From NCBI GenBank assembly GCA_044892505.1, contig CM097884.1, positions 121,272,001-121,336,000 on the forward strand: 64,000 nucleotides of DNA, read 5' to 3'. This document shows positions 10,066-30,797 of the stretch, piece by piece; within the stretch, counting starts at the first letter, position 1; every line of letters begins with the position of its first letter. This DNA is from Schmidtea nova. Taxonomy: Eukaryota. The position numbers and the translations under genes are program-made. The notes under the pieces were generated by a model. That model ran no database searches, was not told where the DNA came from, and saw nothing but the letters and a program-made list of their open reading frames with translations.

Positions 10066-13000
10066 CTATACCATCATTATCGTCTTTTCCTCGTATCGTT
10101 CTTCATCTTCTATTTGTTTCCAGAATTCTTTACCTTTCGTTCTTCTTTGGAATTCTTGCTGTATCTCTTCTGGTATTTCTATTCTTTGTTTCATAATTTT
10201 AATATCTGGCCATTGTATGGCTGTCGCTTTGTTTCTCTTTCTGTATCTCCAATATATTATCATGCTTGTCGTCATTATCCCATATGCTATTAATATTCCT
10301 ATACTGATTAATCCTATTACTGTTTTTCCACGGTTTGTTGCTTTGATTTTATTCTGATTCGCTTTTATCTCATTTTGGGTTTGAGCCTCTGGCTTCTTCT
10401 CCTTCTGTACTTGATTCTTGACTTTGTTCATTACTTCTTGGGTAGACCAATGGCGGTTTAGTAGTTGTTTGACGTTATTTTCTTTTGTCTGGTTTTCTAC
10501 GCTTCCTGGTTCGATCTGTTGTTGTAGTTTCTCTGAGATCTGATATAATCCGCATTCTGGTTTTTCTGAACCTTTTCTGGTGAAGGTACATATCGCGTAT
10601 GTCCTATTTACTTCCATTTTCTTTAATTCGACTTTTTCTTTATTCTTTATTTCTTTACAGTGGGTTAGGTTGTCTTCTTCCCCTTCTGGGTTATGCTTTG
10701 TCCAACATATTCCTTTAACTGTCTGATCGAGTCCTGTTAATGTCAGAGTTCTTTCTGTCTTTGTTAGTTCTTCTTCATCGAATTTCAGTATCTCTCCTTT
10801 TTGGAATGTCTTGCAATGCTCTATTCCCTCTTGGATTCCTTTCTCCCAGATACATATACTTCCTTCTTCATTCATTTGTATTTCTTGTATTTCGATTTCC
10901 TTGTTTGTTCGTGATTCGTCGCTTGTCTGAACTTGGTATTCCTTCCTTGGTTCGTTGTATGTTCCCCAGCATAGTTTGTTGCTACTTGTTTTCCTTATTG
11001 TTATGGCCATTTGTTCTATTATTATTCCTTTATCGATACGTTTGGACATTGCTAGTATTAATGCTATGCATACGCACTCCTGTTGGGGTGATATTCTTTC
11101 TCTCGTTTTATTGGTGCTTTTCTCTCCTTCTCCTGGTTTATCCGTTGTGTTTCTTATCTGAGTTGCTGGTTGATCTATGGTGTTTTTGATTTCTTTCTTT
11201 GTTGGTTTTACTCTATACCATTCGAGTCCAGGCGTTTCATATTTTTGGCATACGACTGTCTTAGGTAGCCCCGCCTTCTTTTCCTTTCCTATTATGCATA
11301 TTCGATGCATGATTCCTCTATACATCCCTTCTATTCGTACTACATCCTGGTCGGATTTTCTGATTATGCATTTTAGTGGGTTATCTTTCCCAATTGGTTC
11401 ATCCTCTCTATTCCAGCATATTTTCTCGACCTCTTGGACATTTACTATTTTTATCCCTGCTTGTAGGTTTGTTGCTTCATCCCTATTGATTAATGTCAAT
11501 ATTATTGTTAGACCCAACCATTTTGAACTCTGCGGTAGACTTCTGGTTCGCCTTTCATATTTTTTCTCTTCTCCTTTAATCTCTTTTATTTCCTTGTCTT
11601 TGTTGTTCATTCCTGGTTTTACGATTTTTGCTTCTTTCTTACTCCTGGTCGGTTTTGGTTCTTTTCGTGCTTCTAGTATTTCGACTCCATGGCTTGTATT
11701 ATCTATATTTAGCCATTGGGTTGTTGATTTTCTTGGGCTTATCTTGCGTATCCATATAGCTGATAACGCGATTATTACTGGTATGGTTGCTGTTAATATT
11801 CCTAAGCCGATCAGTTCTTTAATTTCTTTATTCTCGTCTGTTTGTATAGGTTCGCTTTGGTTGTACATTATTCCGTATTGTCCCTTTAGTTTTCTCATTA
11901 ATTGTTCTCGTTCCTCTTGCTTTCTTTTGACTTCTTTGATAACTTCTTCAGGTGTCCATTTTGCTTGAGGGTCGGTTATTGTTTTTTCTGCGTCCATTTG
12001 TTCATTCGTTTGGCTTAGTTCCCTGAATTCGAGTTTCCTTGTTATTCCTTTTGATGTTGCGTTTACTGGTGTATAGTAGGTTTCGCATCTTTCTTGTTGG
12101 TTTCCTAGTGCGTCCGTTTTTTCTATTGTACATACTTCGTACTCGCTATTAAATTGTAGTCTTTCGATCTTGATTTCTTTATTTGTTTTTCTGCACTCTC
12201 TTGATTGTCTTCTTATATATTTCTGGACTAGTATCCAACATATCTCCAATGTTTTATTCTCTATTTTCCATAATGTCAGAGTTGCTGATGTCTTTTTCTC
12301 GGATTTTGTCGTAACTTCTTGGCTTATCGGTTGTTTATTGTTTTTAAAGGTAGTGGTGTACTTCGGTTTCCCTTTGTTTCGTTGTCTTCTTTTATTTTTT
12401 CGTGTTAACGTTTTAGTTCTTGTTCCGGATGAAGTGGTGTATATTCCGCATTCTAGGTCGTTTATCGTTATCTGATCATTTTTCTTTACCAGACATATTT
12501 CGTAAGTTTGTTTACTTTCTAAACCTTTTATTTGTATCGTCGTTGCTCCTGTACTTGTTCGACATTGTGGTGTCTTTCTTTCATTCGTCTCTTTTTCGTA
12601 CTTCCTCCAGCATACTCCTTTCACATTTGGTTCTATTTCTTTTATTTCTAATGTTATGTTTATTTTCCGCTTGATTTGTTTATTTCTCTTCCTCGTTCTC
12701 CTTCTGAACTTTATTACTTCTCCGGGTTGAAATGTTTTACATTTTGTGGTACCTTTCTTGTTTGTCTCTTTTTCTAATAGGCATAGTTTGTACATCTTAT
12801 CTGCTTTTACTTCGGATACTTTAATTACTTTGTTTGTTGTTGGTTTTCGACTTTTCCTTATTTCATTTACGCCGATTTCCTCGTTATTCCTCGCCCAACA
12901 TTTTATGTTAGTATTCTGTGTATCTTCTACTTCTGTTATTGTCATAGTTTCAATTTCTATTCCTTCCTCTAATCGTTTTATTATTATTAGTATGAGTGCT

Positions 13001-13520
13001 AAGCATAATACTTCCATTTGGTAAGACACTCTTTCGGTTTCGTTTGTGGCAACTCTTGCTTCGGGTCTTTTTATTGTAATTCGTATAGTTGGTGTTGTTT
13101 GCTTATCTATTGCCTGGGGTTTTTTGTTTTCTGTTCCCTGTGTCTCTGTTCTTCCACATTTTCCGAGGATGTAATCTCCTTTGGGTGACTGTTGTATTGT
13201 CATGGCTGCTTTAGGTGTTTGGTATTTTGCACATGCGATTGTGTTGTGTGATCTTGGATGCTTTTGTTTTCTAACGGTGCATATTTTGTACCAGGTATCT
13301 AGATCTAAGTCATTGATCTCTATGATCTCTTGCTCGTGTTTTGAGATTCTGCAATCCATCGGGCTATTTTGTTCCGTGGTTTTGTCCTTTTTCGACCAAC
13401 ATACTCGTTCGATTCCTTTTGCGTTTTTTATTTGTATTATTGCCCTTTCTTCACATGTCATTCCCTGACTTGGGTTAATTAACGTTAAAATCACTGTTAG
13501 TAATAGTAATTCTGGTTTGA
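10066..13520 (-). other. C-terminal duplicated extracellular modules: signal-like segment, several FN3-like repeats, TM helix (two copies)
   Basis: Repeated pattern ICW..C...I.I..L....Y.IC......C..Y.T. Paired segments LLTVILTLINP / LTIILTLINR and VLCLALILII / VCIALILAM. TM helices at ~11750-11818 and ~10250-10325. Confidence 0.6.
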
Positions 13521-16500
13521 AGAATGGTTTTATGGTTGATTTATAACCTGTTCTTTGGGTGTCATTTTTATCTCCTTGGTCGTTTGTTCCTTGTTCTCCC
13601 TCTTCATCTCTTTGTTTTTCGTCTTCACCTTTCTTTCCTTCCTTGTCTCGTTTCTTGTCTTTTCTCTCGTTTTCCTCTTTATCGGGTGGTTCGTGATCGC
13701 TTGGATTTTCTGAGTTGTTACCGTCGTCACTATCTGTGTTGTCATCTCCCCCTGGCTCGTCGAAAATGTCGTCCTCGACATTGATTTCTTCTATTAGTTT
13801 CGCATACGCTAATGTCGTTAGATTACTTGCCTCAAATTCTTGTGTTTCTATTTGCTCTGGTATTACTTTGTTAGTGGATTTATGTTCCAAGATTTCCTTT
13901 TTGGCCTTGATCCAATTGTTGATGTATGTCTTCATCAATTCTTTCCATTTGCCTGTGTATTTTTCCTCTTTCGGGCTGGTTGTGATTTTTAGATCTTTTC
14001 TTTCCATAAACATCTTCAATATCTCTGGCCATTTATACGTTATTAAGGCACTTCTTATGCACCAGTTTTGGTTATGTTCGGTAAACTTATTAATCCTGAA
14101 TGCTGGTTCGTTAGTATTAGGATTTATCCACGTAAGTATTGATTCTGTTAGTTCGACGTTGTTCATCATTGCTAGTACACTGGGTTTCTTGACCGTATCA
14201 GTTAGGTGATCTATTTCTTCCTGATTTGGGATTGTTTTAATGAAATTGACCATTTCCCAATTATGTGTTAATAATGCTACATCCAATATTGAATTATCTT
14301 TCTCTGTTTTGCCTGTAAGTCCTGCACCTGCTTTGTATAGTTCTTCTAATACCTTTGTTTTCGTTTTGGCCCTTGCTGCAAATACCATAAGTGTATCTCC
14401 TTTCTCGTCTATCATATTCATATTGCTGCCGCAATTTAGCATTACTCTTGCAATTTCCATTACTTTCCTATCTTTGCCATTTCGTAGAGCTCTATGTATG
14501 GGCATTATTCCGTCTTTTGGTAATAGGAATGTTACTGGCATTTCCTTTTTTATTATTACTATGTCGTTACCATTGTATGTTCCTTTTGCGTATGCGTGTA
14601 CTTTTTCAACTAATGCGCCGAGTATTTCCAGTGCATGTTTACTATTCTCGAATTCCGGTAACAATTCTTTTGCTTTTTCTTGTATCGCATCTAGTCTAGC
14701 TTGGTATGGTGCTTCTGCTTTGAAGAGTGGTGTGAGTTTCTTGTTACTTTCTCTTTCTTTTTTCTCTAAAACCTGTTTGCATTTTTCGGGATGGTTTAAG
14801 ATTTTTACTAATTCCTCATATTCGCTTACTATCGTCTGGTATATCTCGTTAAAATTGCTTATGTCTCTGTATGTTATTAGTTTATCAAGTGGTTTCGCGC
14901 ACCATTTCCTAATCTTATTGAATAAGGCTTCCTTCTCTTTATCGAATTTGTATTCTTCTTCATTCTTTGTGATGTTTATGTTTCCTCTGTCTAATAAGGT
15001 TAGTAATGTCTTCTGATCACAAGTAAATTTCAGAAGATATCTTAACAGCGCGTTTTGTCCTTCGCTGTATACTTCGTTTATGTCTAAGACCCATGTATCC
15101 TCTTCTGGTCGTTTCCATTTGATTAACTTACGGATCGTGTTGCATTTACCAATTTTGATTGCTTCTTTGATAATGTCTCTTTTAACCAATTCGTCTATCT
15201 CCCAAGTGCAGTTAGCTATTATGTATTTCAGCATTGGTTGGTGAGAACTCCATATTACGTGATTTAGCACTGTTTTGTCCTCTCTATCTCGTTCTGTCCA
15301 ACTGAAATGAGCTTTTATCAATAGATCTATCATTTCTTTATCTGCTTGGTGGATTGCGGCTGTCATTAATGGAGTTTCTTGTTCCCGATTCCCTACGTCC
15401 AAGTTTTGGTTTGTTTCTTTTGCGATTTTTAGGAATTCTTTTGCTCTTTCAATGTTTTTACACTCTATCGCATTATGTAAGGCTGGTTGTCCTCCTACAT
15501 CTTTCAATAAGAGTATTTCAGGGATTTTTTCCAATAATTCAGAAATAATTGGTTCGGTTGGTAATCCTTGTGCGTAACGGCTAATTATATGTCTAATATC
15601 CCTTGATATGCCTGCTTCGTCTCTAACATGCCATCTTCCCATTATCTCTCTCGCCTTCAATATGATTTCTTTATTTCTGATTTCTTTTTGCCTTATTTCT
15701 GCTTTGTCGTCTTCGGTTGCATTAGCTCTGAGCATATTTATCCTGGCTGTTTGTGATCTGGTTATTATTCGATTTTCTGGTGTTGTAGTTATCGTTTTAG
15801 GCACTTTCTTACATCTGCAGGTGTTTACGTATATGGGTCGTATTAACGGTCGATTTACTAGCTTAACTTTGACATTATTGTCCTTCTTGTATATAATTTC
15901 GTAAGGTCCTCTTCCAGGTCTTTGGAGTTTCTTAACAGTTCCTGGTATTATTTCGGGAGTTTCTATTATCACCCAATCTCCTGGTTTTAGATCGTTTGCC
16001 TTTACATTTTTCTTTTGGTCGTGTAAATCCTTATAACTTTCCTGATAAAATTTAATGTTGAGTTCTGCCGTTTTCCATATTTCCTGCATTCTCTCTTTGA
16101 ATTTGGTTACGTAGTCGTCATCTTCCATATATTGCGATAATGGTGGCTGATACTCTAAATCTATGGGCATGTTGCATTCTCTTCCATACATAAGTTGAAA
16201 TGGGCTTAGTTTTGTTGCTGCATGTATCGACATTCGGTATGCCATTAAACATAATTTTATATATTCGTCCCAATCAGTCTGATGTCTGCTGACGTAATTT
16301 GATAACATTCTGATCAATGTACCATTGAATCGCTCCGTTTGTCCATTCGTTTGCGGGTGATATGGTGAAGTTCTCAATTTTGCTATTCTGAAATAGTTTG
16401 TCACCTCGTTCAATAACTCACTCATGAAGTTAGTTCCTTGGTCTGTGAGTATTTGTTTTGGAGTTCCGTATCTGCAACATATTTCTTCCACTAGAATTTT

Positions 16501-19500
16501 TGCTACGGTTTTTGCTTTTTGATCTTGCATGGCAAATGCTTCCGGGAATTTCGTCAGATAATCCGTTATCACCAATATATAAATATTTCCGTTTAGACTT
16601 TCTGGTAATGGTCCTATTACGTCCATTGCTATAGTTGTCATTGGCTCTGCTGGTATCGGCATTGGTTGTAGCGGGTTCTTCCATTTCTTCCCACTATCCT
16701 TTCTGGTTGCGCAAGTTAGACAATTTTTAATCCATTCCTTTATATCTTCTTCCATTGTTCGCCAATAATATTTTTGTCTCATACGATTTATGGTCTTTTT
16801 CTCGGACATATGACCTCCCAATTTCCCATCATGGTATTGGATCATTATCTCTTTCCTTCTGTTTTCTGGTAAACACATCAATCTCTTTTCACCGTCTTGT
16901 ATTAACAACCATCCTTTATTTATTATGTAGCGATGTTGATATTTTCCTATATGTTCCTTTAGTTCCTTATTATCCTTGAATGCCTCCATATTTCGAGACG
17001 TTAGGAACTCTAGGATCTGTCCTAATTCTTTGTCTTCCTGTTGATCTTTCTTTAACTCACTAAAATCTAAATCCTCCGCTATTAATACACAAATTCGTTG
17101 TACATCAGGATCGGTTAATTCCGGAAATGTCAGTCTTGACATACAATCTGCATTCGCATTCGTTTTTCCTGATTTAAATTTTATGTCTGGTGAGTACTCC
17201 TGTAACTGCATTGCCCATCGCATTAATCTACTGGATGTTTCCTTGTGCTGTCCTAACCATACAAGCGGTTGGTGATCTGTTGTTATGCAGATGATGTGAC
17301 CCCATAGTAAATATTTAAAGTGTTTAATAGCTAATATAATTGCTAATGCTTCCCGTTCTGTTACTGAGTAATTTTTCTCGTGCTTTTTGAATGTCCGGCT
17401 ATAATATCCGATTACCCGTTCTTTTCCTTCGTCGTCGTATTGTCCTAATACTGCTCCTGCTGCATATCCGCTTGCATCTGTTGCAAGTAGGAATGGCTTC
17501 TTGAAGTCTGGGTGTACCAATATGGGTGCGGTTATCAGTTTATCTCTCAATGTTTCAAAAGCTGTTTGTTGTTCATCTCCCCATATGAATGATACGTCTT
17601 TCTTTACCAGCTCCTGTATAGGCTTTGCTATTCCGGCGTAATCTTTTATAAACTTTCTATAATATCCACATAGTCCGAGAAATTCTTGTATTTGGGTTAT
17701 TGTTTTTGGTACTGTGCATTCTTTTACTTTGTCGATATTTCTAGGATCCGGTTCTTTTCCTTTTGCTGACACTATATGTCCTAAAAATGTAACCTTTTCT
17801 TTTGCCCAATCGCATTTTGATGGCTTGAGTTTTAACTTCCATTGTCTAAGCCTAACGAATACATCTCGAATATCCTGTATGTGTTGTTCGAATGTACTAG
17901 AGTAAATCAATAAGTCGTCGATGTAGACCATGCACTGCTTTATTCCGTGGGTGACGAAATTCATGCATCTCTGAAATGATGCTGGTGCGTTCGTTAATCC
18001 AAATGGCATTTTCCGAAATTGATATAGGTCTCTACCGATGGTAAAGGCAGTTTTCTCTTTATCTTCTTCCTTCATTTTTATTTGCCAGTATCCGCTTTTC
18101 AGATCTAACGACGTAAAATATGCTGCTCCTTGTAATGTTAATAGCATTTCATTAATGTCTGGTAATGGGTAAGTATCCCTTTTTGTCACAGTATTCAATC
18201 TTCGATAGTCTATGCAGAATCTCTGTGTTCCGTCTTTCTTCTTTACCATTACCACTGGAAATTGCCAGGGTGAACAACTTGGTTCGATTACTTCTGCATC
18301 CAACATTTTCTTCACTTCTGCTTCTGCTACTGCTTTCTGTGCTTCCGCTAATTTGTACGGCCTTAATGCAATTGGTGTTTCATCTGTTAATGGTATTGTA
18401 TGTAGTGTGACATCACATGTTCCTAGATCTAAATCGGATGCTGCAAATATATCCTTATACTCTATCAGGAGTTTTTCTAGCTGCTTCCTTTGATCCTCAT
18501 TTAATAATTCACTATCAATATTCCAGGTTGGTTCTTTATCTTTCTCTGCTCCTTCTATTGGCAGTTCGATATCCATCATTGGGGTTAATTTACCTAATCT
18601 TTCGTTTTCGTATATTATTTTGTCCTCTTCGTCGAAGTTTACTACGTTTATTGGGATTTCTCCATTATCGTTTATGTTAACTAGTCCTCTTGCCATTGGC
18701 AACGCTTTTCTTTTCTCGAATCTCTTACTTGGTTCGAAAATCATATCCCCTTGGATTGTCGGATCTATTTTTACGTAACATATTTTCTCCTTTCTTGCGG
18801 GTATTATCATTTGCTTTGAACTTGTCACTTTGGCTTCTATTGCGCATATTTTTCCTGTGCTATCCTTTAGTCTCATTGTTCCGAGGTCGATTACAATCTC
18901 TTTAAATAATGCTGGCATCAAATCTGTTCCGATGATGCAAGGTACGCTTAATGCTGGTATAACTGCTACGTATGTATCGATTTCCGTGTTTAAGTGGCGT
19001 ATTTTTACCCACCATCTTCCTGCTACTTCTACAACTTCTTTGCTACATGCAATTATATGGACGTTTGTCCTTTCTATATCTCGTCTTTGCTCTTGTGGTA
19101 TCCATTTGATGTCGATGGCAGAAATGTTTGCTCCCGTGTCGATCATTGCTTCGATTTCCCTTCCGTTAATCTCTATTGTCGTGGTTAATACTGGACCTGT
19201 GTTTGATGACATCACTGCGATCGTGTGTGTATCTCCTTGTGGATCCACACTTCTACATCTTCTCATTTTATAATCTTCTGGTATCATGGGATATACATTT
19301 GTCATTGGCATCATTTGCATCGTGCTATTTTTTCCTCCTTGTAGTGGTTCTTGATACATTGTTGGTGGAGGTGCGTAACATTTCCATGCGTCGGCTGGAT
19401 TCTTTTCGATGTATTGTGGTGCTTGGTTCTTATACACTTGTCCTCCCTTATAGTCGTCATCGTCGTCATCGTCGTCACTCGAATCATTTTGGGTTTTATA

Positions 19501-22500
19501 TCCTTTCATCCTCTCCCATAAACCTTTTCTTTCTCTCTTGAGCTGTTGTCTTGCTTGTTCGTCATTCATTATCTTTTTAAATTTTCGTCCTACTTCTTCA
19601 TCTGTTCCCTTCATTTTTGCAAGTATCTTCAACAATCTCTTTATTCGATGTATGTCCTTTGAGTGTCCGTGCAACACCATCGTTTTCGCGAGGAATGGTA
19701 AAAATCCTACTACCATTTTCCAATTCACTTTCTTTTCTCTCTTGTAAATATCGAAACACGCTAACATTTGCGTTATTATCACTCTGACGATTTGTATTAT
19801 TAATATAACCCCCAGTATTCCGGCCATCATTTGTCCGAATATCAGAAATCTTCCCCACATTGCTTTCATCATATTTTCGGTGGCTTTCTTGAAATGTGCT
19901 GGTGACAACAACAGTTCATAATTCGGTCCTTCTCGATAATTCGTTCCTCCCGTTATCGTTACGATATTTGACAGTAATGCTTCTCTTCTTGCCGGGAATA
20001 ATATATTCTGCCTTGCTGCTTCTAAATCCTTTGGACTATATATTCCGTTGTTTGAGACATCTACGTCGCTGAATTGCCTATCCTTTGACAACTGCATTAG
20101 CTCGAATTCTCTTGGTGCTATCACTTCGGATCTTCCTGGGAACATAACCCATTTACCATCTGGTTTCTGATAAAGCGGTCCATACGCATTACTACAGTTG
20201 AATGGATTTGGTTCAAACCCTGGTGGATTGATGATTCTCGTCACCGGTTGGACGTATCGTACTTTTCCTTTGTAATCGATTTCTAACTCATTTGTACAGG
20301 TTCCAGGTTTCAACTGTGTTGTTGCTGCTAGCGACGCGTGTGTTTTTTCGCAAATGTATACGTACATTGCTTCTCCGACCACTCTTCCGAAATGTCCTTC
20401 TCTCAGTGGTAATAATGGCATCGCGCTATCTGGATTCGTAATCGCTACGGTCAATTTCGTCTTTAATATTTCTCGATTCAGTATACAATCATTGTTTATC
20501 AGATCGTAGTACACTTTTTGTAATGAGGCTTGTCCTCTATGGAATAGGAAATCCATTTTATTATTCACATATAGGTGTAGTTTGATATCCATTGTGTCGA
20601 TTTTGGGTTTCGCGTTTGGCACTTCTTGTTTTGACACATATATTCCTGGGTAATTTGTTTCGTATACCGTTGTACTACACTTGAGGGTTGCTTTTCCTTT
20701 TATGAACCTCATTCCCACATCCTGATTTGTGGTTATCAATACTGTTGGTGTGGCTCTCATCTCTATTCGTTTTTCTCTATGATCTGGTTTCAGTTGTCTT
20801 TTATTCTCTAAAGCTTCCTTGAGATGCTTTGCTCTCTCTTTGTCGTCATCGTCTTCTTCCTGGAACGTTTTTCCTTGGATTTCGTCGAACTTTGCTCCTT
20901 GTAGCAGTTGTAACTGACATTCGTTTACCTTTGGTTTGTACACTAATGTTGACATTCCCGTTTGACACATGCTCCTGTCGATTTTACACATGGATAACGT
21001 TTTCATTTCTCCCGTTGTTGGTTCGAAGAATGCTTCGTAGCTTTTTAGTTCGACTATATACGTATCCATCACCACTAAGTTGGTTGCGGGTACTCCGAAT
21101 ATCGGGTAGGTTTCTCCTTGACAATATCCTTCTCCTCCCGTAATCCGTCCTGCTACATAGTATGTCTGTTGCATCATCATTCCTGGCTTTCCTCTTATCT
21201 TGATTTTATCTCTTGTTGTTACTTCTCCATGTTTAAACAGTGCTTCGCAGTCTTCTCCTTGTAACACGATTGGTTCTCTTTCCGTTCCTGTCATGACAAT
21301 TGCTGAATAATGTCCTCTCCCGCAGTAGAATGCGAATCTCGTCTTCTGCACTTTACATTCATTCACCATTGTCTTTATGAGTTCTGCTTCTTGATACACG
21401 TGGTACCATTGTTCCTTTTTAATCTTTTGCAACTCTACCGGAGTTGCATCTTTGCATTGCTCCGTACCTCTCAATGAATACTTTTCTCCTAACTTCATTT
21501 GGTCGCAATCAAACACTTCGAATGCTGTTGCGCTATCGGTGCTAATCATCCATATCAACATCATCATTATTATAGCACTCAGATTCATTGATGACTTCGC
21601 GTTTCCTGTTCCTGCTTGTTCTTTTTCTAACTCTTCCAATATTTTTTCAAATTTCTTTTTCATATTCTTGGCTTGTGTTTTCTTCTGGTTAGTTTTTATA
21701 AATGTTTCCCATCCTCCTTTGTTAATGACGTAGGGTTCTATTTCTCTAGCTATAATCTTTGCGGTATTTTTTATATGTATCTCTAATGCAGTGGGTTTTG
21801 GTCGACCTCTACTCAGTGTCAACAGATTGTAGATCGTGTATGCAATAGCTATTACGTATTTGTTATCTGTTTCCGCTCCTTCTGTCAGTTTCTTTATTAA
21901 CATAGTGGTTCCTTGCCAGTCTAAGTGATTTGATTTCGTCTTTTCTTTTATGAATTCCGGTAAGATGGGTGCGATTGCGCTGTGTAGTGACTTCGCCTTT
22001 TCGCTTATCTCAGTTATCCGCCAGTATTTTCTTAATTCCGGATCAATTATTGCCAATATTTCCATTATTGTTTTCGATATCCATTCCTCCCCCTGACATA
22101 TTGGTGTTGTCTCTTTTTCTTTCATCTCCGCAATTTTATTTAATTTCCTTAAACATAATTCCCATTGATCTTGTCTCTTTTCGTCTTTATTTCTTACAAC
22201 TACAGTTGCTGGGTCTGTCTTAGGTCTACCTCTAGGTCGTTTATCCATTCCTGTACCTGTTTCCACAAATCTTGTTGTTCGTCCGGTTTCCTCGGTGACA
22301 TCTCTTGGTTCGTTAGCTCTTTCTTCTAACCATCTTTCCATTTCTTGTGTTAATTGTACATTTTCGACATTCGCTCCTCTCGTTTCGTCTTCTGTTAGAT
22401 CGTTTACTTCTTCTATTATTATTTCTTCTTCGACTTCTGCTTCTCCGGTGTTGGTTACTTGTATTGTCGTAGGTAGTTCTTGTATTCTTTCGAAAATGTT

Positions 22501-23922
22501 ATCGTCCTTTTCCCTTGTTAATTCGGTTAACTCTTCTATCATATCGTCACTATCCGTTAAAATTTCGTCCACGTCGTATGGTTGTGGTGGAGTCCTTTCT
22601 CTGGTTCCTCTGGGTGTTGTCTCAGATCGTCTTGAACTTGTTCCTGGCGTTAGTACTGGTTTCATCGGACTTGGCGTACTTATACTTCCGTGTGGTTTAT
22701 GGTTTTCTTCTTTACGTTTCAATGGTTGACCCGCTATTGCTTCTACTGTCAATGTATTCATGAGGTCTAATTGTGCTGGTGTTATTCCGATTTCCAAACT
22801 GTTATCTAATGATCGTCCTTGGTGTTGTAAATGGAATGGTGGTTCGTATCTCAATTTCTTTTTAATATCTCGAATTTTTTCTGCTATTCCTACCCACAAC
22901 TCTTCCTTATCCTTGTTTGGGTATATTATTCTTAAATGTACTTTCTGTGGAATTTCCTGCGAGAATTCTTGATTTCTCCATTTCCTAATTACGTGGTCTA
23001 GTTGTTCCGGACACCACTCGTTAACTCTTTTATATTCCGCGATTGCTTTTGCTACTTTACGCAAGCATGTTATATCTTCCCCATTTACCACGAAAAAATC
23101 TGCGAGACCCTTTATTACTTTTCTCTTACCGTGCGCATTAGTTTTTAATATTTCGACAAATTCTTCCGTTTTTTGCTTTTCCCTTTCTAGCCACATGGCC
23201 GCGGTTTCTGGTCCATCTAGGTCTATTGGCGTAGCTTTCCTTGTCACCATGCAAACTCTTCCTATCTCTGGTTCGCAGTCATCTTCAATTCCTCTTTTAT
23301 ATTCTTCTTCATATTCCCCTTCTTTTGGTTCCCAACATTTTCCTTTCTCGTTCCATTGTTTTTCTACGGGTGTTCGTATTCGTCTGTTGAGATTGCGTTC
23401 TTCTAATACATTTTCCCACTCTGGCCAAATTCGCCAATTTCGATAAATTTCTACTATTTGTTGTAATTTGCGCACAATTTCTTTCCGTCGTTCCCGTTCT
23501 CTTTTCTGATCTTTAGCAGTTTCCCTTGGTGTATCGTCCATTCTGCTAACGTGGATTGTTTGGTGATTATCCCATATACCGATTTTATATAGTCGTCTCT
23601 CATCGTGATTCCATAATACATGTTCGTTGTATTGTATGATTATGTCGTCTTCCCATTCGTCTTCTGGTTCTCTTTGCACTAGTGTCTCTTTGATGACCTT
23701 TATTAATTCCTTTATGGTACAGTCTGCTACCACTTCAATTTCTTTGGTGTCTTCATTAGGCAATGCTACTGAAATTTTTAGATCTGTTATTTTCCCTTGT
23801 CTGAACATTGTTTTTCCCATTTTTGCGATTAATTTGTCGTGTGAGATTTGTGACCATCTCGTGTGACTTGTGTCACGTATGCACTCAATACATCGTTTCA
23901 ATTTCTCGTATTCGCTTCTCAT
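10066..23922 (-). CDS. pol: 4618-aa polyprotein: Ubl x2, AT-hook, Bcl-2-like, Env (class III, chuvirus/gB-like), PR, dUTPase-like spacer, RT, RNase H, IN, ankyrin repeats, FN3-like/TM modules
   Basis: PR IDTG (19132-19140); RT YIDD (17914-17925) with MPFGLTNAPASFQR; RH TDASG / EREALA / TDHQPL; IN HHCC plus MDVIG, TDQG, TERFNG and a GPY motif. No stop over 13.9 kb. Confidence 0.96.
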   Translation of the reverse strand: MRSEYEKLKRCIECIRDTSHTRWSQISHDKLIAKMGKTMFRQGKITDLKISVALPNEDTKEIEVVADCTIKELIKVIKETLVQREPEDEWEDDIIIQYNEHVLWNHDERRLYKIGIWDNHQTIHVSRMDDTPRETAKDQKRERERRKEIVRKLQQIVEIYRNWRIWPEWENVLEERNLNRRIRTPVEKQWNEKGKCWEPKEGEYEEEYKRGIEDDCEPEIGRVCMVTRKATPIDLDGPETAAMWLEREKQKTEEFVEILKTNAHGKRKVIKGLADFFVVNGEDITCLRKVAKAIAEYKRVNEWCPEQLDHVIRKWRNQEFSQEIPQKVHLRIIYPNKDKEELWVGIAEKIRDIKKKLRYEPPFHLQHQGRSLDNSLEIGITPAQLDLMNTLTVEAIAGQPLKRKEENHKPHGSISTPSPMKPVLTPGTSSRRSETTPRGTRERTPPQPYDVDEILTDSDDMIEELTELTREKDDNIFERIQELPTTIQVTNTGEAEVEEEIIIEEVNDLTEDETRGANVENVQLTQEMERWLEERANEPRDVTEETGRTTRFVETGTGMDKRPRGRPKTDPATVVVRNKDEKRQDQWELCLRKLNKIAEMKEKETTPICQGEEWISKTIMEILAIIDPELRKYWRITEISEKAKSLHSAIAPILPEFIKEKTKSNHLDWQGTTMLIKKLTEGAETDNKYVIAIAYTIYNLLTLSRGRPKPTALEIHIKNTAKIIAREIEPYVINKGGWETFIKTNQKKTQAKNMKKKFEKILEELEKEQAGTGNAKSSMNLSAIIMMMLIWMISTDSATAFEVFDCDQMKLGEKYSLRGTEQCKDATPVELQKIKKEQWYHVYQEAELIKTMVNECKVQKTRFAFYCGRGHYSAIVMTGTEREPIVLQGEDCEALFKHGEVTTRDKIKIRGKPGMMMQQTYYVAGRITGGEGYCQGETYPIFGVPATNLVVMDTYIVELKSYEAFFEPTTGEMKTLSMCKIDRSMCQTGMSTLVYKPKVNECQLQLLQGAKFDEIQGKTFQEEDDDDKERAKHLKEALENKRQLKPDHREKRIEMRATPTVLITTNQDVGMRFIKGKATLKCSTTVYETNYPGIYVSKQEVPNAKPKIDTMDIKLHLYVNNKMDFLFHRGQASLQKVYYDLINNDCILNREILKTKLTVAITNPDSAMPLLPLREGHFGRVVGEAMYVYICEKTHASLAATTQLKPGTCTNELEIDYKGKVRYVQPVTRIINPPGFEPNPFNCSNAYGPLYQKPDGKWVMFPGRSEVIAPREFELMQLSKDRQFSDVDVSNNGIYSPKDLEAARQNILFPARREALLSNIVTITGGTNYREGPNYELLLSPAHFKKATENMMKAMWGRFLIFGQMMAGILGVILIIQIVRVIITQMLACFDIYKREKKVNWKMVVGFLPFLAKTMVLHGHSKDIHRIKRLLKILAKMKGTDEEVGRKFKKIMNDEQARQQLKRERKGLWERMKGYKTQNDSSDDDDDDDDYKGGQVYKNQAPQYIEKNPADAWKCYAPPPTMYQEPLQGGKNSTMQMMPMTNVYPMIPEDYKMRRCRSVDPQGDTHTIAVMSSNTGPVLTTTIEINGREIEAMIDTGANISAIDIKWIPQEQRRDIERTNVHIIACSKEVVEVAGRWWVKIRHLNTEIDTYVAVIPALSVPCIIGTDLMPALFKEIVIDLGTMRLKDSTGKICAIEAKVTSSKQMIIPARKEKICYVKIDPTIQGDMIFEPSKRFEKRKALPMARGLVNINDNGEIPINVVNFDEEDKIIYENERLGKLTPMMDIELPIEGAEKDKEPTWNIDSELLNEDQRKQLEKLLIEYKDIFAASDLDLGTCDVTLHTIPLTDETPIALRPYKLAEAQKAVAEAEVKKMLDAEVIEPSCSPWQFPVVMVKKKDGTQRFCIDYRRLNTVTKRDTYPLPDINEMLLTLQGAAYFTSLDLKSGYWQIKMKEEDKEKTAFTIGRDLYQFRKMPFGLTNAPASFQRCMNFVTHGIKQCMVYIDDLLIYSSTFEQHIQDIRDVFVRLRQWKLKLKPSKCDWAKEKVTFLGHIVSAKGKEPDPRNIDKVKECTVPKTITQIQEFLGLCGYYRKFIKDYAGIAKPIQELVKKDVSFIWGDEQQTAFETLRDKLITAPILVHPDFKKPFLLATDASGYAAGAVLGQYDDEGKERVIGYYSRTFKKHEKNYSVTEREALAIILAIKHFKYLLWGHIICITTDHQPLVWLGQHKETSSRLMRWAMQLQEYSPDIKFKSGKTNANADCMSRLTFPELTDPDVQRICVLIAEDLDFSELKKDQQEDKELGQILEFLTSRNMEAFKDNKELKEHIGKYQHRYIINKGWLLIQDGEKRLMCLPENRRKEIMIQYHDGKLGGHMSEKKTINRMRQKYYWRTMEEDIKEWIKNCLTCATRKDSGKKWKNPLQPMPIPAEPMTTIAMDVIGPLPESLNGNIYILVITDYLTKFPEAFAMQDQKAKTVAKILVEEICCRYGTPKQILTDQGTNFMSELLNEVTNYFRIAKLRTSPYHPQTNGQTERFNGTLIRMLSNYVSRHQTDWDEYIKLCLMAYRMSIHAATKLSPFQLMYGRECNMPIDLEYQPPLSQYMEDDDYVTKFKERMQEIWKTAELNIKFYQESYKDLHDQKKNVKANDLKPGDWVIIETPEIIPGTVKKLQRPGRGPYEIIYKKDNNVKVKLVNRPLIRPIYVNTCRCKKVPKTITTTPENRIITRSQTARINMLRANATEDDKAEIRQKEIRNKEIILKAREIMGRWHVRDEAGISRDIRHIISRYAQGLPTEPIISELLEKIPEILLLKDVGGQPALHNAIECKNIERAKEFLKIAKETNQNLDVGNREQETPLMTAAIHQADKEMIDLLIKAHFSWTERDREDKTVLNHVIWSSHQPMLKYIIANCTWEIDELVKRDIIKEAIKIGKCNTIRKLIKWKRPEEDTWVLDINEVYSEGQNALLRYLLKFTCDQKTLLTLLDRGNINITKNEEEYKFDKEKEALFNKIRKWCAKPLDKLITYRDISNFNEIYQTIVSEYEELVKILNHPEKCKQVLEKKERESNKKLTPLFKAEAPYQARLDAIQEKAKELLPEFENSKHALEILGALVEKVHAYAKGTYNGNDIVIIKKEMPVTFLLPKDGIMPIHRALRNGKDRKVMEIARVMLNCGSNMNMIDEKGDTLMVFAARAKTKTKVLEELYKAGAGLTGKTEKDNSILDVALLTHNWEMVNFIKTIPNQEEIDHLTDTVKKPSVLAMMNNVELTESILTWINPNTNEPAFRINKFTEHNQNWCIRSALITYKWPEILKMFMERKDLKITTSPKEEKYTGKWKELMKTYINNWIKAKKEILEHKSTNKVIPEQIETQEFEASNLTTLAYAKLIEEINVEDDIFDEPGGDDNTDSDDGNNSENPSDHEPPDKEENERKDKKRDKEGKKGEDEKQRDEEGEQGTNDQGDKNDTQRTGYKSTIKPFFKPELLLLTVILTLINPSQGMTCEERAIIQIKNAKGIERVCWSKKDKTTEQNSPMDCRISKHEQEIIEINDLDLDTWYKICTVRKQKHPRSHNTIACAKYQTPKAAMTIQQSPKGDYILGKCGRTETQGTENKKPQAIDKQTTPTIRITIKRPEARVATNETERVSYQMEVLCLALILIIIKRLEEGIEIETMTITEVEDTQNTNIKCWARNNEEIGVNEIRKSRKPTTNKVIKVSEVKADKMYKLCLLEKETNKKGTTKCKTFQPGEVIKFRRRTRKRNKQIKRKINITLEIKEIEPNVKGVCWRKYEKETNERKTPQCRTSTGATTIQIKGLESKQTYEICLVKKNDQITINDLECGIYTTSSGTRTKTLTRKNKRRQRNKGKPKYTTTFKNNKQPISQEVTTKSEKKTSATLTLWKIENKTLEICWILVQKYIRRQSRECRKTNKEIKIERLQFNSEYEVCTIEKTDALGNQQERCETYYTPVNATSKGITRKLEFRELSQTNEQMDAEKTITDPQAKWTPEEVIKEVKRKQEEREQLMRKLKGQYGIMYNQSEPIQTDENKEIKELIGLGILTATIPVIIALSAIWIRKISPRKSTTQWLNIDNTSHGVEILEARKEPKPTRSKKEAKIVKPGMNNKDKEIKEIKGEEKKYERRTRSLPQSSKWLGLTIILTLINRDEATNLQAGIKIVNVQEVEKICWNREDEPIGKDNPLKCIIRKSDQDVVRIEGMYRGIMHRICIIGKEKKAGLPKTVVCQKYETPGLEWYRVKPTKKEIKNTIDQPATQIRNTTDKPGEGEKSTNKTRERISPQQECVCIALILAMSKRIDKGIIIEQMAITIRKTSSNKLCWGTYNEPRKEYQVQTSDESRTNKEIEIQEIQMNEEGSICIWEKGIQEGIEHCKTFQKGEILKFDEEELTKTERTLTLTGLDQTVKGICWTKHNPEGEEDNLTHCKEIKNKEKVELKKMEVNRTYAICTFTRKGSEKPECGLYQISEKLQQQIEPGSVENQTKENNVKQLLNRHWSTQEVMNKVKNQVQKEKKPEAQTQNEIKANQNKIKATNRGKTVIGLISIGILIAYGIMTTSMIIYWRYRKRNKATAIQWPDIKIMKQRIEIPEEIQQEFQRRTKGKEFWKQIEDEERYEEKTIMMV
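14150..15510 (-). other. Ankyrin-repeat region fused after the integrase
   Basis: GGQPALHNAIE, QETPLMTAAIH, DKTVLNHVIW, GIMPIHRALRNG, KGDTLMVFAARA, DNSILDVALL. Confidence 0.85.
19640..21590 (-). other. env: Envelope glycoprotein domain, chuvirus-glycoprotein-like / herpes gB-type class III fusogen
   Basis: Signal MNLSAIIMMMLIWMISTDSATA; AFEVFDC; ECKVQKTRFAFYCG; furin site REKR (20767-20778); YVNNKMDF..CILNREIL; GEAMYVYIC; NGIYSPKDLEAARQNILFPA; TM WGRFLIFG..ILGVILIIQIV. Confidence 0.85.
21690..22170 (-). other. Bcl-2-like helical domain (clear BH2, degenerate BH1)
   Basis: EIEPYVINKGGWETFIK resembles Bcl-xL BH2 LEPWIQENGGWDTFVE. The preceding helical spacing fits a Bcl-2 fold, but NWGR is absent. 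Confidence 0.55.
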
Positions 23923-23932
23923 TAACTCTTTT

Positions 23933-26900
23933 CTATGTTTTTTTGACTTGTGGTATGATTTGTTCTATCAGGGAATTTAGATTCTTTCGTAAGACTCGTT
24001 CTTTCTCGTATTCTAAACGAGGTTTTATTCTCCTTTCGAAGCACGTGTTTGCCTCCCTTGCAACTTCTTGTAGGTTCTCTTCTTCCTTTTCATCGCATAT
24101 TGATAATAGGGTTATTTCTCCTGGCCATATACCTGTTTCTACTAAGTGCGTTCTTTTCTTTACGAGTCTATTCTGCGAATAGATGAATTTGTTTTTATAT
24201 GAGCTCCCTAGTCTATCCTCTACCCATCTGTAGATATCGTCTGTAAATGGAGTTTTGATCCAGATTCTTGGTGTAGATGTATTTATTATTATTGAGATGG
24301 TGTAATTGAGGAGTGGTTCCTCTATTAATTTCCCTACGTATCGATTCAACATGTCTACTTCCCGGTCTTGTAACCATTCTTTGTAGTTCATTTGTAATAA
24401 TGCTTTCATGAATTTCCGGTATTGTTTCTTGTCCATGAACTCTTCGTTATATATTACTTCTAGCGAGTTATCTAATAATTTCTGGATTTCATCTACTTTT
24501 ATCTGTGTAGGTTCTGAGGTCTTTATTACTTCTCTCTCTTTATTTTCGTCTTCGGATTCATTTAATATGTCTCCTGCTAGGCTACTGATGTCACTATCTT
24601 CTTCATCGGAAAACTCTCTGGTGGTATTTCTTAACATATTAATATGTGCTGTTTGGTTCGTTTCCCCTTGTATATTCTCCGTTGGTTTTGTTTTGTTTTT
24701 TCTGATTTCTGGTGTTAGTTCATTTTTGTCCTCTATTACTTCGACTTTTTCCATTTTCTTTCCCAACTCGTCTATCTCTTTTAAACGTCTTCTTATCATT
24801 TTTCCTTCAAATATTCGCCGGATTCGGGTTTCGTGACGTATTGGTGGTGGAATTTCTTCTGGTTCTATTTCTTTAATTCTCATCACATTTCTTTTTGTCT
24901 CTGTTACTCCCACGTTTTCCCATATATCCGTTAATTTCAATTTTACTGATGGTGCATCTCCTATTTGTAAGAACGCTTCTCTGGGCAGTTTCGTTACTCC
25001 CGGAATCATCTGGTTTACTTTATTGAACAGTATTTCCACCTTTTCTTTTGCGTTATATTGAAATCGAAACATATGGTCGTTGGGCATGATTACCATCATT
25101 CTTTTTTTCCAAATCTCCTTTCCCTCTTCCTGGTTTATCTCGGTTTCCACTTCCTTTTTTGTTTCTTTTTCTACTTCTTCATCTTTTTGTACTATCTCTT
25201 TTCGACTTTCGTTGTCGGCTGGATTCGGGTCTATCGAATTTATTTCCAGTGTGATTTCTTTCTCGCGAGTGTCTGTTTGGTTTGTTGCTCTTAACATGTT
25301 GATTCTTAGAGGTTGTCGTTCTCTTTCTTGCTGTTTTTGTTCATCCTCTCTTTGTATTCTTGCCCATTCCTGAGCGTGTCGTGCTTGACTTTCTCGATTC
25401 AACCGTTCGTTTTCGCTTTCTATTTTTCTCATCATGCTAATTTGCTGTTGATTGGTTTGCGGATTTCCTCTCGTCGTATTGTTTATGAGTTCCGTCAACC
25501 TTTGAACTTCTTGCATCAAATGAATTTCTTTGGGGGTGGTTTTGTTCTGATTATTGTTATTGTTGTTTTGTTGGTTTCCATAATCTGGTCGGTTTACGGT
25601 ATTTGCTTGATTTCCGTAATTTGGTCGGTTCCCATTACTCTGCCAGTTTCCTCGTTGATTACTTTTTTGTCCGCAATTTCTTGAATAGTGACCAGGTCGT
25701 CCGCAATTAAAACAGATTATTGTAGAACATCTGCTTTCCGAGTGTCCTTTAACTCCACATTTTCCGCAATTCAAATTTTGATAGCATTCTTGCTGCCAGT
25801 GTCCCAACTTCCCGCATGTTTTACATTGTTTTGTTTGTCTTTGAGGGTTGTAATTGTTTTGGTTTTCAAAGTTCTGCACTTTATTTCCTTCATTCCTTCG
25901 TTGAGGGGGTGGTCGGTTTAATTGTTGCGAATTTGGAATGTGATTGTTGAGATTTACCTCTGGTTCGGTTTGTGCTGTGTCCATGGCTAAATAAATTCTG
26001 CCCTCACTTCCTATCATATGCAATTCAAATCGGTTAGCTGTTTCTAACGCTTGATCTATGGTTTTGCATCCTTGACATCCTACTTGCGCTCTTATGTCGG
26101 GTCTTCTTAATCCTCCTATGAAGATAGCTGCCATTAACTCCTCGTTTATTGGACCTCCATCCTTGAATACCGATTTTGCTAATTTTTTCAGTTCGCTCGC
26201 GTATACCGCATTAGATTCATTCATCTTTTGTTTTCTCATTGAGAACTCTATGAATGCCTCGCTCAGCACTTTATTTATTCCAAATGTTTGTTGGAAAAAA
26301 TCCTTTATCGCTGTCCAGCTTGTAGGTGGATTGGTACCATTTTTCGCTTCCAAATATAGGTCCAATGCACTATCTTTCAAATATAACTGAATTCTGCTTA
26401 CCGTTGTTTCAGCTTTCCACTTGCATACCTCCACGAATATGCCAAATTCTTTTAAAAAGGTTTCTAATTTACTCGCATCTCCGTTAAACGGTTCTCCTGA
26501 AAATTTATCCTTTATTTCTTCTCTTGGTTCACCCATTTCAATTCCGCTGTCTTGAGTTATTTTACTTTCGTTTCCTCTTGTTTCTAGTTCGTTGTTATGT
26601 TCGTCTTCCGTTTTACTCGAGCTTGAATCGCTTTCTGTTTCTCTTATTCCTTCGTTATCTGATATTATACTTTCGTTATCACTCGCGTTGATTTCTATCT
26701 CTGGTTCTACCTCGTTTTCTACTTCTTCGATATTATCGTTGTTAGTTTCGTCGATTTCTCCTTCTTGTTCTATCTCGTGTTCTATTTCTTCGATATTATC
26801 GTTGTTAGTTTCGTCGCTCTCTATTTCACTTGCTTGGTTCTCCTTGGGTTCGGCTTGGTTTTCTTTGTTACTTGAGCTGTTGCTTACTATTGACAATTTA

Positions 26901-27118
26901 TCGTTTTCGGTAATCGATTTATCTCTTATTATTTTCCTCGATTTACTCCCTTGTGGGTTATCTTTGCCGGCTTTCTGCTTTTTTGTTGATTTTGTTGTAG
27001 TACTAGTTTTGTCTTTTTTGTTAATGTTGCTACCGACTTTCTTTTCCGTTGGCTTTACTACGACACTCTTTGCTCCTTTTCTCAAGGGGATTACTTTTGT
27101 ATACTCAATTTTCCTGTT
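23933..27118 (-). CDS. gag: Gag (~1050 aa): basic/acidic N-terminus, capsid, 3 CCHC knuckles, Q/N-rich linker, C-terminal Ubl-like extensions
   Basis: FSGEPFNGDASKLETFLKEF capsid-like start; CKTCGKLGHWQQEC, CGKCGVKGHSESRC and CFNCGRPGHYSRNC (25677-25826). Frame open from 27118; the track start at 27085 is TTG and the first ATG is at 26536. Confidence 0.9.
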   Translation of the reverse strand, partial: NRKIEYTKVIPLRKGAKSVVVKPTEKKVGSNINKKDKTSTTTKSTKKQKAGKDNPQGSKSRKIIRDKSITENDKLSIVSNSSSNKENQAEPKENQASEIESDETNNDNIEEIEHEIEQEGEIDETNNDNIEEVENEVEPEIEINASDNESIISDNEGIRETESDSSSSKTEDEHNNELETRGNESKITQDSGIEMGEPREEIKDKFSGEPFNGDASKLETFLKEFGIFVEVCKWKAETTVSRIQLYLKDSALDLYLEAKNGTNPPTSWTAIKDFFQQTFGINKVLSEAFIEFSMRKQKMNESNAVYASELKKLAKSVFKDGGPINEELMAAIFIGGLRRPDIRAQVGCQGCKTIDQALETANRFELHMIGSEGRIYLAMDTAQTEPEVNLNNHIPNSQQLNRPPPQRRNEGNKVQNFENQNNYNPQRQTKQCKTCGKLGHWQQECYQNLNCGKCGVKGHSESRCSTIICFNCGRPGHYSRNCGQKSNQRGNWQSNGNRPNYGNQANTVNRPDYGNQQNNNNNNQNKTTPKEIHLMQEVQRLTELINNTTRGNPQTNQQQISMMRKIESENERLNRESQARHAQEWARIQREDEQKQQERERQPLRINMLRATNQTDTREKEITLEINSIDPNPADNESRKEIVQKDEEVEKETKKEVETEINQEEGKEIWKKRMMVIMPNDHMFRFQYNAKEKVEILFNKVNQMIPGVTKLPREAFLQIGDAPSVKLKLTDIWENVGVTETKRNVMRIKEIEPEEIPPPIRHETRIRRIFEGKMIRRRLKEIDELGKKMEKVEVIEDKNELTPEIRKNKTKPTENIQGETNQTAHINMLRNTTREFSDEEDSDISSLAGDILNESEDENKEREVIKTSEPTQIKVDEIQKLLDNSLEVIYNEEFMDKKQYRKFMKALLQMNYKEWLQDREVDMLNRYVGKLIEEPLLNYTISIIINTSTPRIWIKTPFTDDIYRWVEDRLGSSYKNKFIYSQNRLVKKRTHLVETGIWPGEITLLSICDEKEEENLQEVAREANTCFERRIKPRLEYEKERVLRKNLNSLIEQIIPQVKKT

Positions 27119-27695: not shown

Positions 27696-28015
27696 ATGGC
27701 TCTTCCGGCCTCAATTTTATATCTCACATGGCTCTATTGGCCTCAATTTAATCTCTCAAATGGCTCTCCTGGCCTCAATTTAATCTCTCAGATGGCTCTC
27801 TTGGCCTCAATTTAGTCTCTCCAATGGCTCTCTTGGCCTTAATTTAATCTCTCAAATGGCTCTATTGGCCTCAATTTAATCTCTCAAATGGCTCTCTTGG
27901 CCTTAATTTAACCTCTCAAATGGCTCTCTTGGCCTCAATTTAATCTCTCAAATGGCTCTATTGGCCTCAATTTAATCTCTCAAATGGCTCTCTTGGCCTT
28001 AATTTAATCTCTCCA
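27696..28015. repeat. Tandem array, 10 x 32 bp (ATGGCTCTCTTGGCCTCAATTTAATCTCTCAA)
   Basis: Units start every 32 nt from 27696 to 27984, with a partial unit near 28040. Confidence 0.95.
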
Positions 28016-28055
28016 TAACGCCTAGCTAGGTCATTCAATATGGCTCATTGGCCTC

Positions 28056-28260
28056 AACCCTTTTTTTCAAGGGACAAACCGCTAATAACCCTTTGTTTCA
28101 AGGGACAACTCTCATAACCCTTTGTTTCAAGGGACAAATCTCATAACCCTTTGTTTCAAGGGACAAATCTCCTAACCCTTTGTTTCAAGGGACAAATCTC
28201 ATAACCCTTTGTTTCAAGGGACAAATCTCATAACCCTTTGTTTCAAGGGACAAATCTCCT
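28056..28260. repeat. Tandem array, 7 x 29 bp (AACCCTTTGTTTCAAGGGACAAATCTCAT)
   Basis: Seven near-identical units, each with an internal inverted repeat CCCTT..AAGGG. Confidence 0.95.
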
Positions 28261-28741
28261 AAAACTTTACTTAACCGGTTAATCACAATTCCCTACTTCG
28301 CTAGCGATTAAAATTTCTCAGCTGAGTTATAACTACTTCTATGCGAGCTGACTATGCACCTTTTATTCTTTCCAAATTTGTCATTTATCTCTTTATTCTA
28401 TCATAACTAATTCCTGATCAGCCTGCTTCAACTTTTTATTTATTTTTCTTATGCGCGCTTTACTCCATCAAGATTTCCCTATCTCTCTTCCCAGCCAAAA
28501 TATACAAAAAGATCGCGTCGGTCCATTAATGCAGGATGTGGTGATCAATCACATCACAAAAACTTTCCAACATTTGCGATGGGCCCCTTTCTATACACCT
28601 TGAATAAGTTGATCAATCGGTGCTTCCCAATGGATTCTTATCGGACTACTTTGCAGTAGCTCAAAAATTATTTATATATGACAATTGTACCCATGATTTC
28701 CTTATTAATAAATCAATAAAATCCCATTCAAATTTTATTTA

Positions 28742-29516: not shown

Positions 29517-29534
29517 ATCCCGGCTGAGCCCCCA
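29517..29534 (-). promoter_or_regulatory. Primer-binding site, tRNA-Pro
   Basis: TGGGGGCTCAGCCGGGAT is 16/18 identical to the MLV tRNA-Pro PBS TGGGGGCTCGTCCGGGAT and lies 6 nt from the 5' LTR. Confidence 0.88.
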
Positions 29535-30605: not shown

Positions 30606-30797
30606 TCTATAATTTATTCAGGATATTTACTCTATGATTTAATTATATGAAAATTAAAATCTGATCATAGGATTATTAGGTCACGAATATGAACTATTAA
30701 AATGCGAAACAAAACAAAAAAAAATATAAATAAAAAAACAAAATTCACTAATGAACTATAATATTTTAATACAATTTCAACATTTGTTGATCAGTTT

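Follow-up and report, generated by a model that had tools for sequence, protein, structure and literature searches.

The element and its surroundings

The window, the whole 64,000-nucleotide stretch of Schmidtea nova DNA that was analysed, contains a Ty3/gypsy LTR element of 29.7 kb on the minus strand, spanning positions 2965-32658 (Table 1). It is flanked by a CCTG target-site duplication (2961-2964 and 32659-32662). The two LTRs are identical at 3110 of 3133 alignment columns, and because sequences of 3.1 kb differ by only two mismatches and four gaps, the insertion is recent. The TG..CA LTR ends, a target-site duplication within the 4-6 bp range of Ty3/gypsy elements, the order PR-RT-RH-IN (protease, reverse transcriptase, RNase H, integrase), a gypsy-type RNase H and an H2C2 integrase all place the element in this superfamily. 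The primer-binding-site-like stretch next to the 5' LTR presumably resembles the complement of the tRNA-Pro 3' end; a tRNA gene search found none. Downstream of the polyprotein lie three accessory ORFs, and the two shorter ones (362 and 201 aa) are both present in another natural copy too.

Table 1. Features of the element in the window, ordered from its 5' end
Feature	Positions	Strand	Basis
5' LTR, 3.1 kb, TG...CA ends	29541..32658	-	LTR-LTR alignment
Primer-binding-site-like stretch, adjoining the 5' LTR	29517..29534	-	
Two tandem-repeat arrays (32- and 29-nt units), 5' leader	27696..28262	.	
Gag (CCHC knuckles)	23933..27118	-	Pfam and ORF scan
Rest of polyprotein, 4632 aa stop to stop, 4618 from first Met	10066..23964	-	
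Two ubiquitin-like domains (23530-23787 and 22729-22947)	22729..23787	-	Cross-family profile
BCL2-like domain, immediately upstream of the signal	21661..22098	-	4-family profile
Internal signal sequence, predicted signal-peptidase cut before F801	21523..21594	-	
Cassette common to families A and B: mature Env, TM and first part of tail (3' edge approximate)	19630..21522	-	
Class III (chuvirus G/herpes gB-like) Env ectodomain	19858..21522	-	PF24664 and fold
REKR in a variable loop; family-specific, possible furin site	20767..20778	-	
Env transmembrane helix, then basic stretch	19756..19848	-	Hydropathy
Second hydrophobic segment, also in viral homologues; predicted non-spanning	19672..19728	-	
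Aspartic protease	18910..19182	-	PF00077, E 3.2e-7
RT, RNase H, integrase, Ty3/gypsy order	16354..18246	-	Pfam
Ankyrin repeats, lower bound approximate	14200..15480	-	Ank_2, E 3.3e-14
Two tandem cassettes: signal-like segment, Cys-bearing FN3-like domains (7 in total), TM	10249..13533	-	Repeats and model
Accessory TRAF-like ORF (RING-like, zf-TRAF, MATH)	8114..9493	-	MATH_2, E 3.4e-20; zf-TRAF, E 3.3e-7
Two more accessory ORFs: a coiled coil (362 aa) and a 201-aa ORF bearing hydrophobic segments	6294..8027	-	
3' LTR	2965..6091	-	Aligned with 5' LTR

Several further features can be seen in the window. Each LTR carries a 202-aa ORF on the element strand (3427-4035 and 30009-30617) that has no Pfam match, and another copy of the element has an ORF of equal length in both its LTRs. 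The sense strand of the element is 44% A between the LTRs (6092-29540), a strong AT skew. About 460 bases from the 5' LTR lies a second, broken gypsy-type element (33118-38602) with 260-nt LTRs, a DUF7041 gag, RNase H and integrase. Farther along, a 500-aa plus-strand ORF (55150-56652) with a BED zinc finger and DUF659 looks like a fragment of a hAT-like transposase, and the AT-rich flank holds tandem arrays at 42395-42594 (31 nt), 54842-54929 (22 nt) and 62010-62465 (228-nt units).

A single Gag-Env-Pol reading frame

In the window copy, the gag frame is separated from the long ORF within their overlap at 23933-23964. The break is found in this copy only: among the best 20 of 40 scored matches, window included, the end of gag and the start of the long ORF are in one frame in all 19 other copies, so a programmed gag/pol frameshift is rejected. 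Open frames of 5,646-5,736 aa hold 22 of the 73 Env matches. The chain encoded by the family is thus about 5,685 aa long (~5,685 codons), with the order Gag, Ubl, Ubl, BCL2-like, signal, Env, TM, PR, a ~110-aa domain, RT, RH, IN, ANK and FN3-like cassettes. An earlier note, made from the letters of the window, had described an envelope embedded in a Pol polyprotein. Env does lie in frame ahead of the protease, but the chain is Gag-Env-Pol rather than Pol; a '4,618-aa Pol' appears because the private break splits gag off.

The envelope glycoprotein

Env is preceded by a signal-like hydrophobic segment (aa 777-800) that ends in a small-x-small site and is followed by FEVFDC. A signal is found at the equivalent place in relatives that carry Env within a polyprotein, and in free viral glycoproteins. 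The Cys-rich ectodomain matches PF24664 (Monjiviricetes_fusion) with an E-value of 3.6e-73, an Atlas search returns the same family, and 13 cysteines are nearly invariant in an alignment of 94 rows. The AlphaFold model built from this alignment has a pLDDT of 88.6; in structure searches, its best E-value is 3.8e-14 against herpes gB structures and 1.4e-35 against chuvirus-like glycoprotein models, with TM-scores up to 0.66. Fusion-loop positions are retained, and the ectodomain contains one N-glycosylation sequon only. A single TM helix (aa ~1359-1389) follows, and then RVP, RVT_1, RNase H, integrase and ankyrin matches. On modeled fold and conserved cysteines, the assignment of Env as a class III fusogen is secure, while fusion activity is predicted. 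The signal peptide, cysteine pattern and TM reported in the earlier note are all borne out, and so is the proposed kinship: a lack of structural similarity to class III fusogens would have spoken against it, and the search found likeness to both gB and chuvirus G.

The furin site fares less well. REKR is present as reported and is kept in all 36 family copies in which the site could be located (39 were examined), but it is not typical of these glycoproteins: an R-x-K/R-R motif is seen in the ectodomain of none of 12 relatives with Env before PR, and one arises in 14% of shuffles of the ectodomain. We reject it as a hallmark of Env-before-PR glycoproteins.

Whether PR lies in the cytosol or the lumen depends on how many helices follow the ectodomain. 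Roughly estimated insertion energies are -0.9 to +1.5 for the Env TM; for the second hydrophobic segment, the equally rough values are +4.3 in the window and +2.3 to +5.4 in 11 relatives. With so poor a score for insertion, a second TM that would place PR in the lumen is disfavoured.

Relatives and predicted membrane topology

Word-index searches for Env homologues gave no match, and a full HMMER scan with Env gave 896 matches at E<=0.001. From the best 150 of these, 19 relatives were chosen by length and rank and scanned for domains. In 12 of the 19, one protein holds Env and, after it, an aspartic protease, the arrangement for which the earlier note had proposed a survey, and several of these have Gag upstream. 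Of the other seven, five end within or at Env and two have a BEL/Pao-like order. Env before PR is common to relatives at 27-40% identity, and in the same genome, families of ~19 kb with frames of 3,393-3,401 aa have the same order at ~36% Env identity. A quick Env tree separates 16 in-polyprotein Envs from 12 free or BEL/Pao-type glycoproteins (SH-aLRT 100), with the BEL/Pao-type Envs on the side of the free glycoproteins. P0058, a relative of the BEL/Pao Anakin type, has its Env downstream of DUF5641, the usual end of BEL/Pao Pol.

A signal-like segment is found just upstream of the conserved [FY]DC start of Env in every relative that is long enough. The complete layout, signal-Env-one TM-Pol-signal-domain-TM, is seen in family C of the same genome, P0005, P0007 and P0014, and this layout with a second ectodomain recurs at 30-36% Env identity. 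P0152 has two extra hydrophobic segments between Env and IN, before RT. The topology is based on hydropathy with an approximate insertion scale, which overlooked both the Env TM in P0017 and, in the window copy, the first and weak signal of the FN3 region. Because one TM separates Env from Pol, Pol is predicted to be cytosolic. Threading through the ER membrane, with cuts by signal peptidase and the element protease, would be the simplest reading of the layout. The threaded topology put forward in the earlier note fits the sequence and recurs in relatives, and remains a deduction from hydropathy.

Some observations on these relatives fall outside this question. The ~19-kb families, with Gag-Ubl-BCL2-Env-Pol-ectodomain frames at C1:60.08 Mb, C2:373.5 Mb and C3:77.7 Mb, have a downstream ORF of 469-483 aa that has no Pfam match and that may, from its sequence, encode a DEDD-type exonuclease. 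Two to about seven aspartic-protease-like domains occur in one chain in P0152, P0003, P0005, P0002 and P0015, and in the 4844-aa P0152, ANK and C2H2 domains lie upstream of RT as well. P0007 is an Env-PR-RT-IN polyprotein deposited as a protein of a Flavobacteriaceae MAG; it is probably eukaryotic host DNA in a bacterial bin.

Other domains of the chain

A profile of the ubiquitin-like domains (eight domains from four families) matches ISG15 with an E-value of 1.5e-5, as well as ubiquitin chains. In a pestivirus-like scheme, such domains could serve as deubiquitinase cut sites; no C-terminal diglycine is seen in them, and this idea is not supported. The BCL2-like assignment is weaker: the four-family profile matches BAX (E 0.0026) and Bcl-xL (E 0.0046), with designed PPR repeats ranking above both through summed weak repeats. 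Pfam Bcl-2 matches family C (E 0.0018) and P0006 (E 0.00096); the window copy has no direct Pfam Bcl-2 match, and a PDB search with a single BCL2-like sequence gave no match. Between PR and RT, where Burro elements have a dUTPase-like domain, there is a conserved region of ~110 aa with no Pfam or PDB match. No BIR domain, a feature of Burro1, is matched by Pfam in the window element, although divergent forms may escape such a search.

The model of the FN3 region has a pLDDT of 85. Its structure search gives a moderate top Z of 8.0 with almost all rows FN3; with Foldseek, FN3 rows lead but no match reaches E<=0.001, and an Atlas search of the region gave no usable match. The FN3 assignment rests on these results together with the seven Cys-patterned repeats, and the cassettes are predicted to be a second surface protein or proteins. 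Extra hydrophobic segments at aa ~3633 and ~4284 make the topology there ambiguous.

Selection on Env

The Env-Pol stretch was taken from all 39 other copies picked by gag-junction similarity rather than by env. The whole Env ectodomain is present in 36 of the 39, and 35 of those 36 also have PR and RT; within the 9 kb taken per copy, none of the 39 has RT without Env. A dN/dS-like ratio, calculated from variants common to at least two copies, is 0.023 for Env, 0.021 for TM, 0.014 for both RT and PR, and 0.026 for IN, with 0.075 for BCL2 and 0.10 for ANK. A set of copies selected by env, though a biased sample, gives the same picture. Purifying selection acts on Env with about the strength seen for RT. 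With the presence of Env in nearly all copies and its fixation in two families (see below), this is genomic evidence that Burro env is a working, selected part of the element.

These data also bear on how Env is made. The single frame could be real while Env, and perhaps excess Gag, comes mainly from spliced or internally started RNAs, with threading of the whole chain a minor product. Drosophila gypsy env and copia gag are made from such RNAs, particles generally need Gag in excess, and family A (that of the window copy) has a Met just upstream of the signal. That Met is absent in family B, described below, and in several relatives, and the 130 bases before the signal are rich in purines and lack a T-rich stretch resembling an acceptor. 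Across the junctions of BCL2, signal, TM and tail, the frame is uninterrupted and evolves under purifying selection, and in most relatives a single TM keeps Pol cytosolic, as threading of the whole chain would have it. We regard a mainly spliced or internally started origin of Env as unlikely.

Probable exchange of Env between sister families

Depth is higher over 19624-21615 in four runs (contigs, one study), which we use as a lead only; it is higher because a second family, B, shares the Env cassette of family A. First-look counts of DNA candidates (496 for the junction, 785 for env and 851 for RT) do not make an excess of env apparent. With exact words, 247 occurrences of an env 20-mer compare with 157 of an RT 21-mer from family A, and 19 of 20 env-positive, RT-negative loci belong to family B. 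This family has ~77% DNA identity to family A and at least 131 copies genome-wide, as counted with one exact B-specific 20-mer.

The similarity of the two families changes abruptly along the chain. Protein identity between A and B reaches 94-98% in the Env ectodomain and, for the most part, 98-100% in the TM region; around Env it is 55-76%, with 91% for RT and 41% for ANK. At fourfold sites, the difference between B and the window copy is 0.18 in Env, 0.57 in RT, 0.67 in IN and 0.67 in BCL2, whereas the corresponding values within A are all alike (0.087, 0.092, 0.093 and 0.104). The step in divergence falls at codon 800/801, which is the predicted signal-peptidase cut and so gives independent support for the start of mature Env; at the other end, similarity declines ~20-30 codons beyond the membrane region.

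To check for selection bias, 64 family-B loci were collected on C1 up to 404 Mb with the B-specific 20-mer, 18 of which lack the env 20-mer. In 17 of the 18, Env is complete and A-like (85-94% DNA identity); the remaining locus is truncated. No family-B copy with an older Env was found among them. As to the direction of the exchange, family A is nested in B, the more diverse of the two (5.4% vs 2.8%), with the caveat that the root of this tree rests on decayed copies. Recombination between A and B, followed by fixation, is likely the best explanation of the common Env, judging from these sequences.

The same similarity might instead reflect extreme constraint on both protein and RNA structure, or Env might be a passenger viral insertion. 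Within A, no part of the protein is more conserved than Env, which is level with RT. Its silent sites, though, diverge within A just as those of RT do, yet A and B differ there by only a third as much as in RT, and the edge at codon 800/801 is sharp; a passenger would not be expected ahead of PR throughout the distant relatives described above. We consider both versions highly improbable.

A proposed expression and assembly scheme

Our main reading, to which we give a probability of roughly 0.72, is that the locus is a recently inserted giant Ty3/gypsy element of Burro type, whose family has one Gag-Env-Pol frame of ~5,685 codons. The predicted course of the chain is through the ER membrane, with Env reaching the lumen and both Gag and Pol remaining in the cytosol. 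Polyproteins of flavivirus type are threaded through the ER. Here, the hydrophobic segment after the BCL2-like domain would act as an internal signal, and signal peptidase would free the N-terminus of Env at F801, leaving the Gag-Ubl-BCL2 part tethered to the membrane. The Env TM would stop transfer, and PR-RT-RH-IN-ANK would remain on the cytosolic tail of Env until released by the element protease. A second signal after IN/ANK would export the FN3-like ectodomains, likely as an attachment or decoy protein. The purpose may be to form enveloped particles able to move from one cell to another, such as from soma to stem or germ cells. In this reading, Env behaves as an exchangeable module, one that probably crossed between families A and B by recombination before reaching fixation.

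Synthesis of Gag, Env and Pol would be equal (1:1:1), barring other RNAs or selective turnover that alter the balance. The earlier note had expected a fixed Env:Pol ratio of 1:1; any fixed ratio would be Gag:Env:Pol at translation, and it need not hold in particles. Because 1:1:1 output fits badly with the Gag excess that particles require, regulation that is not visible in the sequence is likely.

Env could also be kept for a role at the cell that makes it, such as cell-cell fusion, transfer of cores at junctions or a block to superinfection, with the BCL2, TRAF and ANK parts keeping the host cell alive. The cargo consists mostly of apoptosis and ubiquitin regulators, and according to PMC13524379 no particle is known for gB-type elements. 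A virion surface is suited by the features that have been kept: the fusion-loop positions, the cysteine pattern and whole class III fold, a second predicted ectodomain, and an Env fixed in two families after exchange. A purely cell-associated Env is in our estimate quite unlikely.

A bolder picture can also be drawn, which we offer tentatively as possible rather than probable. Burro-type elements would be enveloped retroelements built like positive-strand RNA viruses, with a chain of ~5,700 residues threaded through the ER. The tail anchor of a captured BCL2 domain would double as the Env signal and tether Gag, Env trimers would cluster the Pol tails and so switch on the protease, a second, FN3 glycoprotein located after integrase would be the attachment partner of the gB-like fusogen, and mature Env would sweep between co-packaged sister families. 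The main reading, for its part, supplies a concrete processing map for elements of this class. Conservation of another ectodomain downstream of integrase hints at a way in which a gB-like fusogen might act without partners of the herpes type.

Comparison with known systems

The earlier note gave env as normally lying 3' of pol; the premise that an envelope ahead of Pol has no precedent is contradicted by work already in print. As described in PMC6431247, GYPSM1/Burro1-4 are giant gypsy elements of dugesiid planarians (Grohme et al. 2018 is cited), with the order Gag, Ubi/SUMO-like, BCL2, env, PR, dUTPase-like, RT-RH-IN, ankyrin and MATH; env is in frame between BCL2 and PR and matches mononegavirus fusion glycoproteins. 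PMC13524379 (Chary & Hayashi 2026) reports GAG-ENV-POL elements of HSV/gB type in Platyhelminthes, Nematoda and Bryozoa, six of them from S. mediterranea (Smed_errantivirus_1-6). The window element belongs with this Burro/GAG-ENV-POL group; its arrangement is already known and nothing is overturned. For BURRO1, PMC8532177 reports expression upon PIWI loss.

Like Burro in that account (PMC6431247), our element is about 30 kb long and has one giant Gag-first ORF with Ubl-BCL2-Env-PR-RT-RH-IN, ankyrin and MATH/TRAF domains. Its 29.7 kb is borderline against a Burro length of about 30 kb or more. The giant ORF, Gag through IN, is found at the family level and is broken in the window copy. Env sits in the same frame, with the BCL2-like domain before it and the protease after it, and is related to mononegavirus fusion proteins, and Ubi/SUMO-like, BCL2-like (weak, E 0.003-0.005), MATH/TRAF and ankyrin domains are all present. 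Membership rests on this domain content, with Burro1 itself compared by description. The differences are in length (~5,685 aa here vs 4,873 and 5,140 for the published Burro-type chains) and in the TRAF-like protein, which is a separate downstream ORF here, in frame in Burro1 and an upstream accessory ORF in an element of D. tigrina, according to the same paper. Its accessible text holds no mention of post-IN FN3-like ectodomains, membrane topology or env exchange.

Smed_errantivirus_1-6 share the gene order and a gB-type Env, with a furin site that is 'not always conserved' (PMC13524379). Compared by eye rather than by computation, the window Env is colinear with those of Smed_errantivirus_5 and _6, and family C closely resembles Smed_errantivirus_1. 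That paper treats gag, env and pol as ORFs, and the terms 'Single ORF', 'fused' and 'in-frame' are absent from its main text. It also cites Sacco et al. 2022 on non-canonical nematode ERVs, metaviruses in which Env is ahead of pol, as it is here. The chuvirus-like glycoproteins of BEL/Pao 'Anakin' elements (PMC7642597) belong to the same Pfam family, PF24664, in a different retrotransposon superfamily; the window element has neither a BEL/Pao Pol nor a C-terminal env, and membership there is rejected. The resemblance to flavivirus-type polyproteins, in the predicted alternation of internal signals and stop-transfer helices and the use of signal peptidase together with an own protease, is an analogy rather than homology.

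In the accessible literature (most subscription papers, Repbase and figures lie outside it), we found no account of env exchange between Burro families, of the polyprotein topology or of post-IN FN3 ectodomains, and no earlier account of selection on Env or of the recurrence of the signal-Env-TM-Pol-signal-ectodomain-TM layout. What the present analysis adds to the published arrangement is the evidence for selection, the conserved topology with its second ectodomain, and the probable env swap. PMC13524379 describes env-pol recombination as infrequent and ancient, whereas the likely exchange between families A and B is recent and resolved to the codon.
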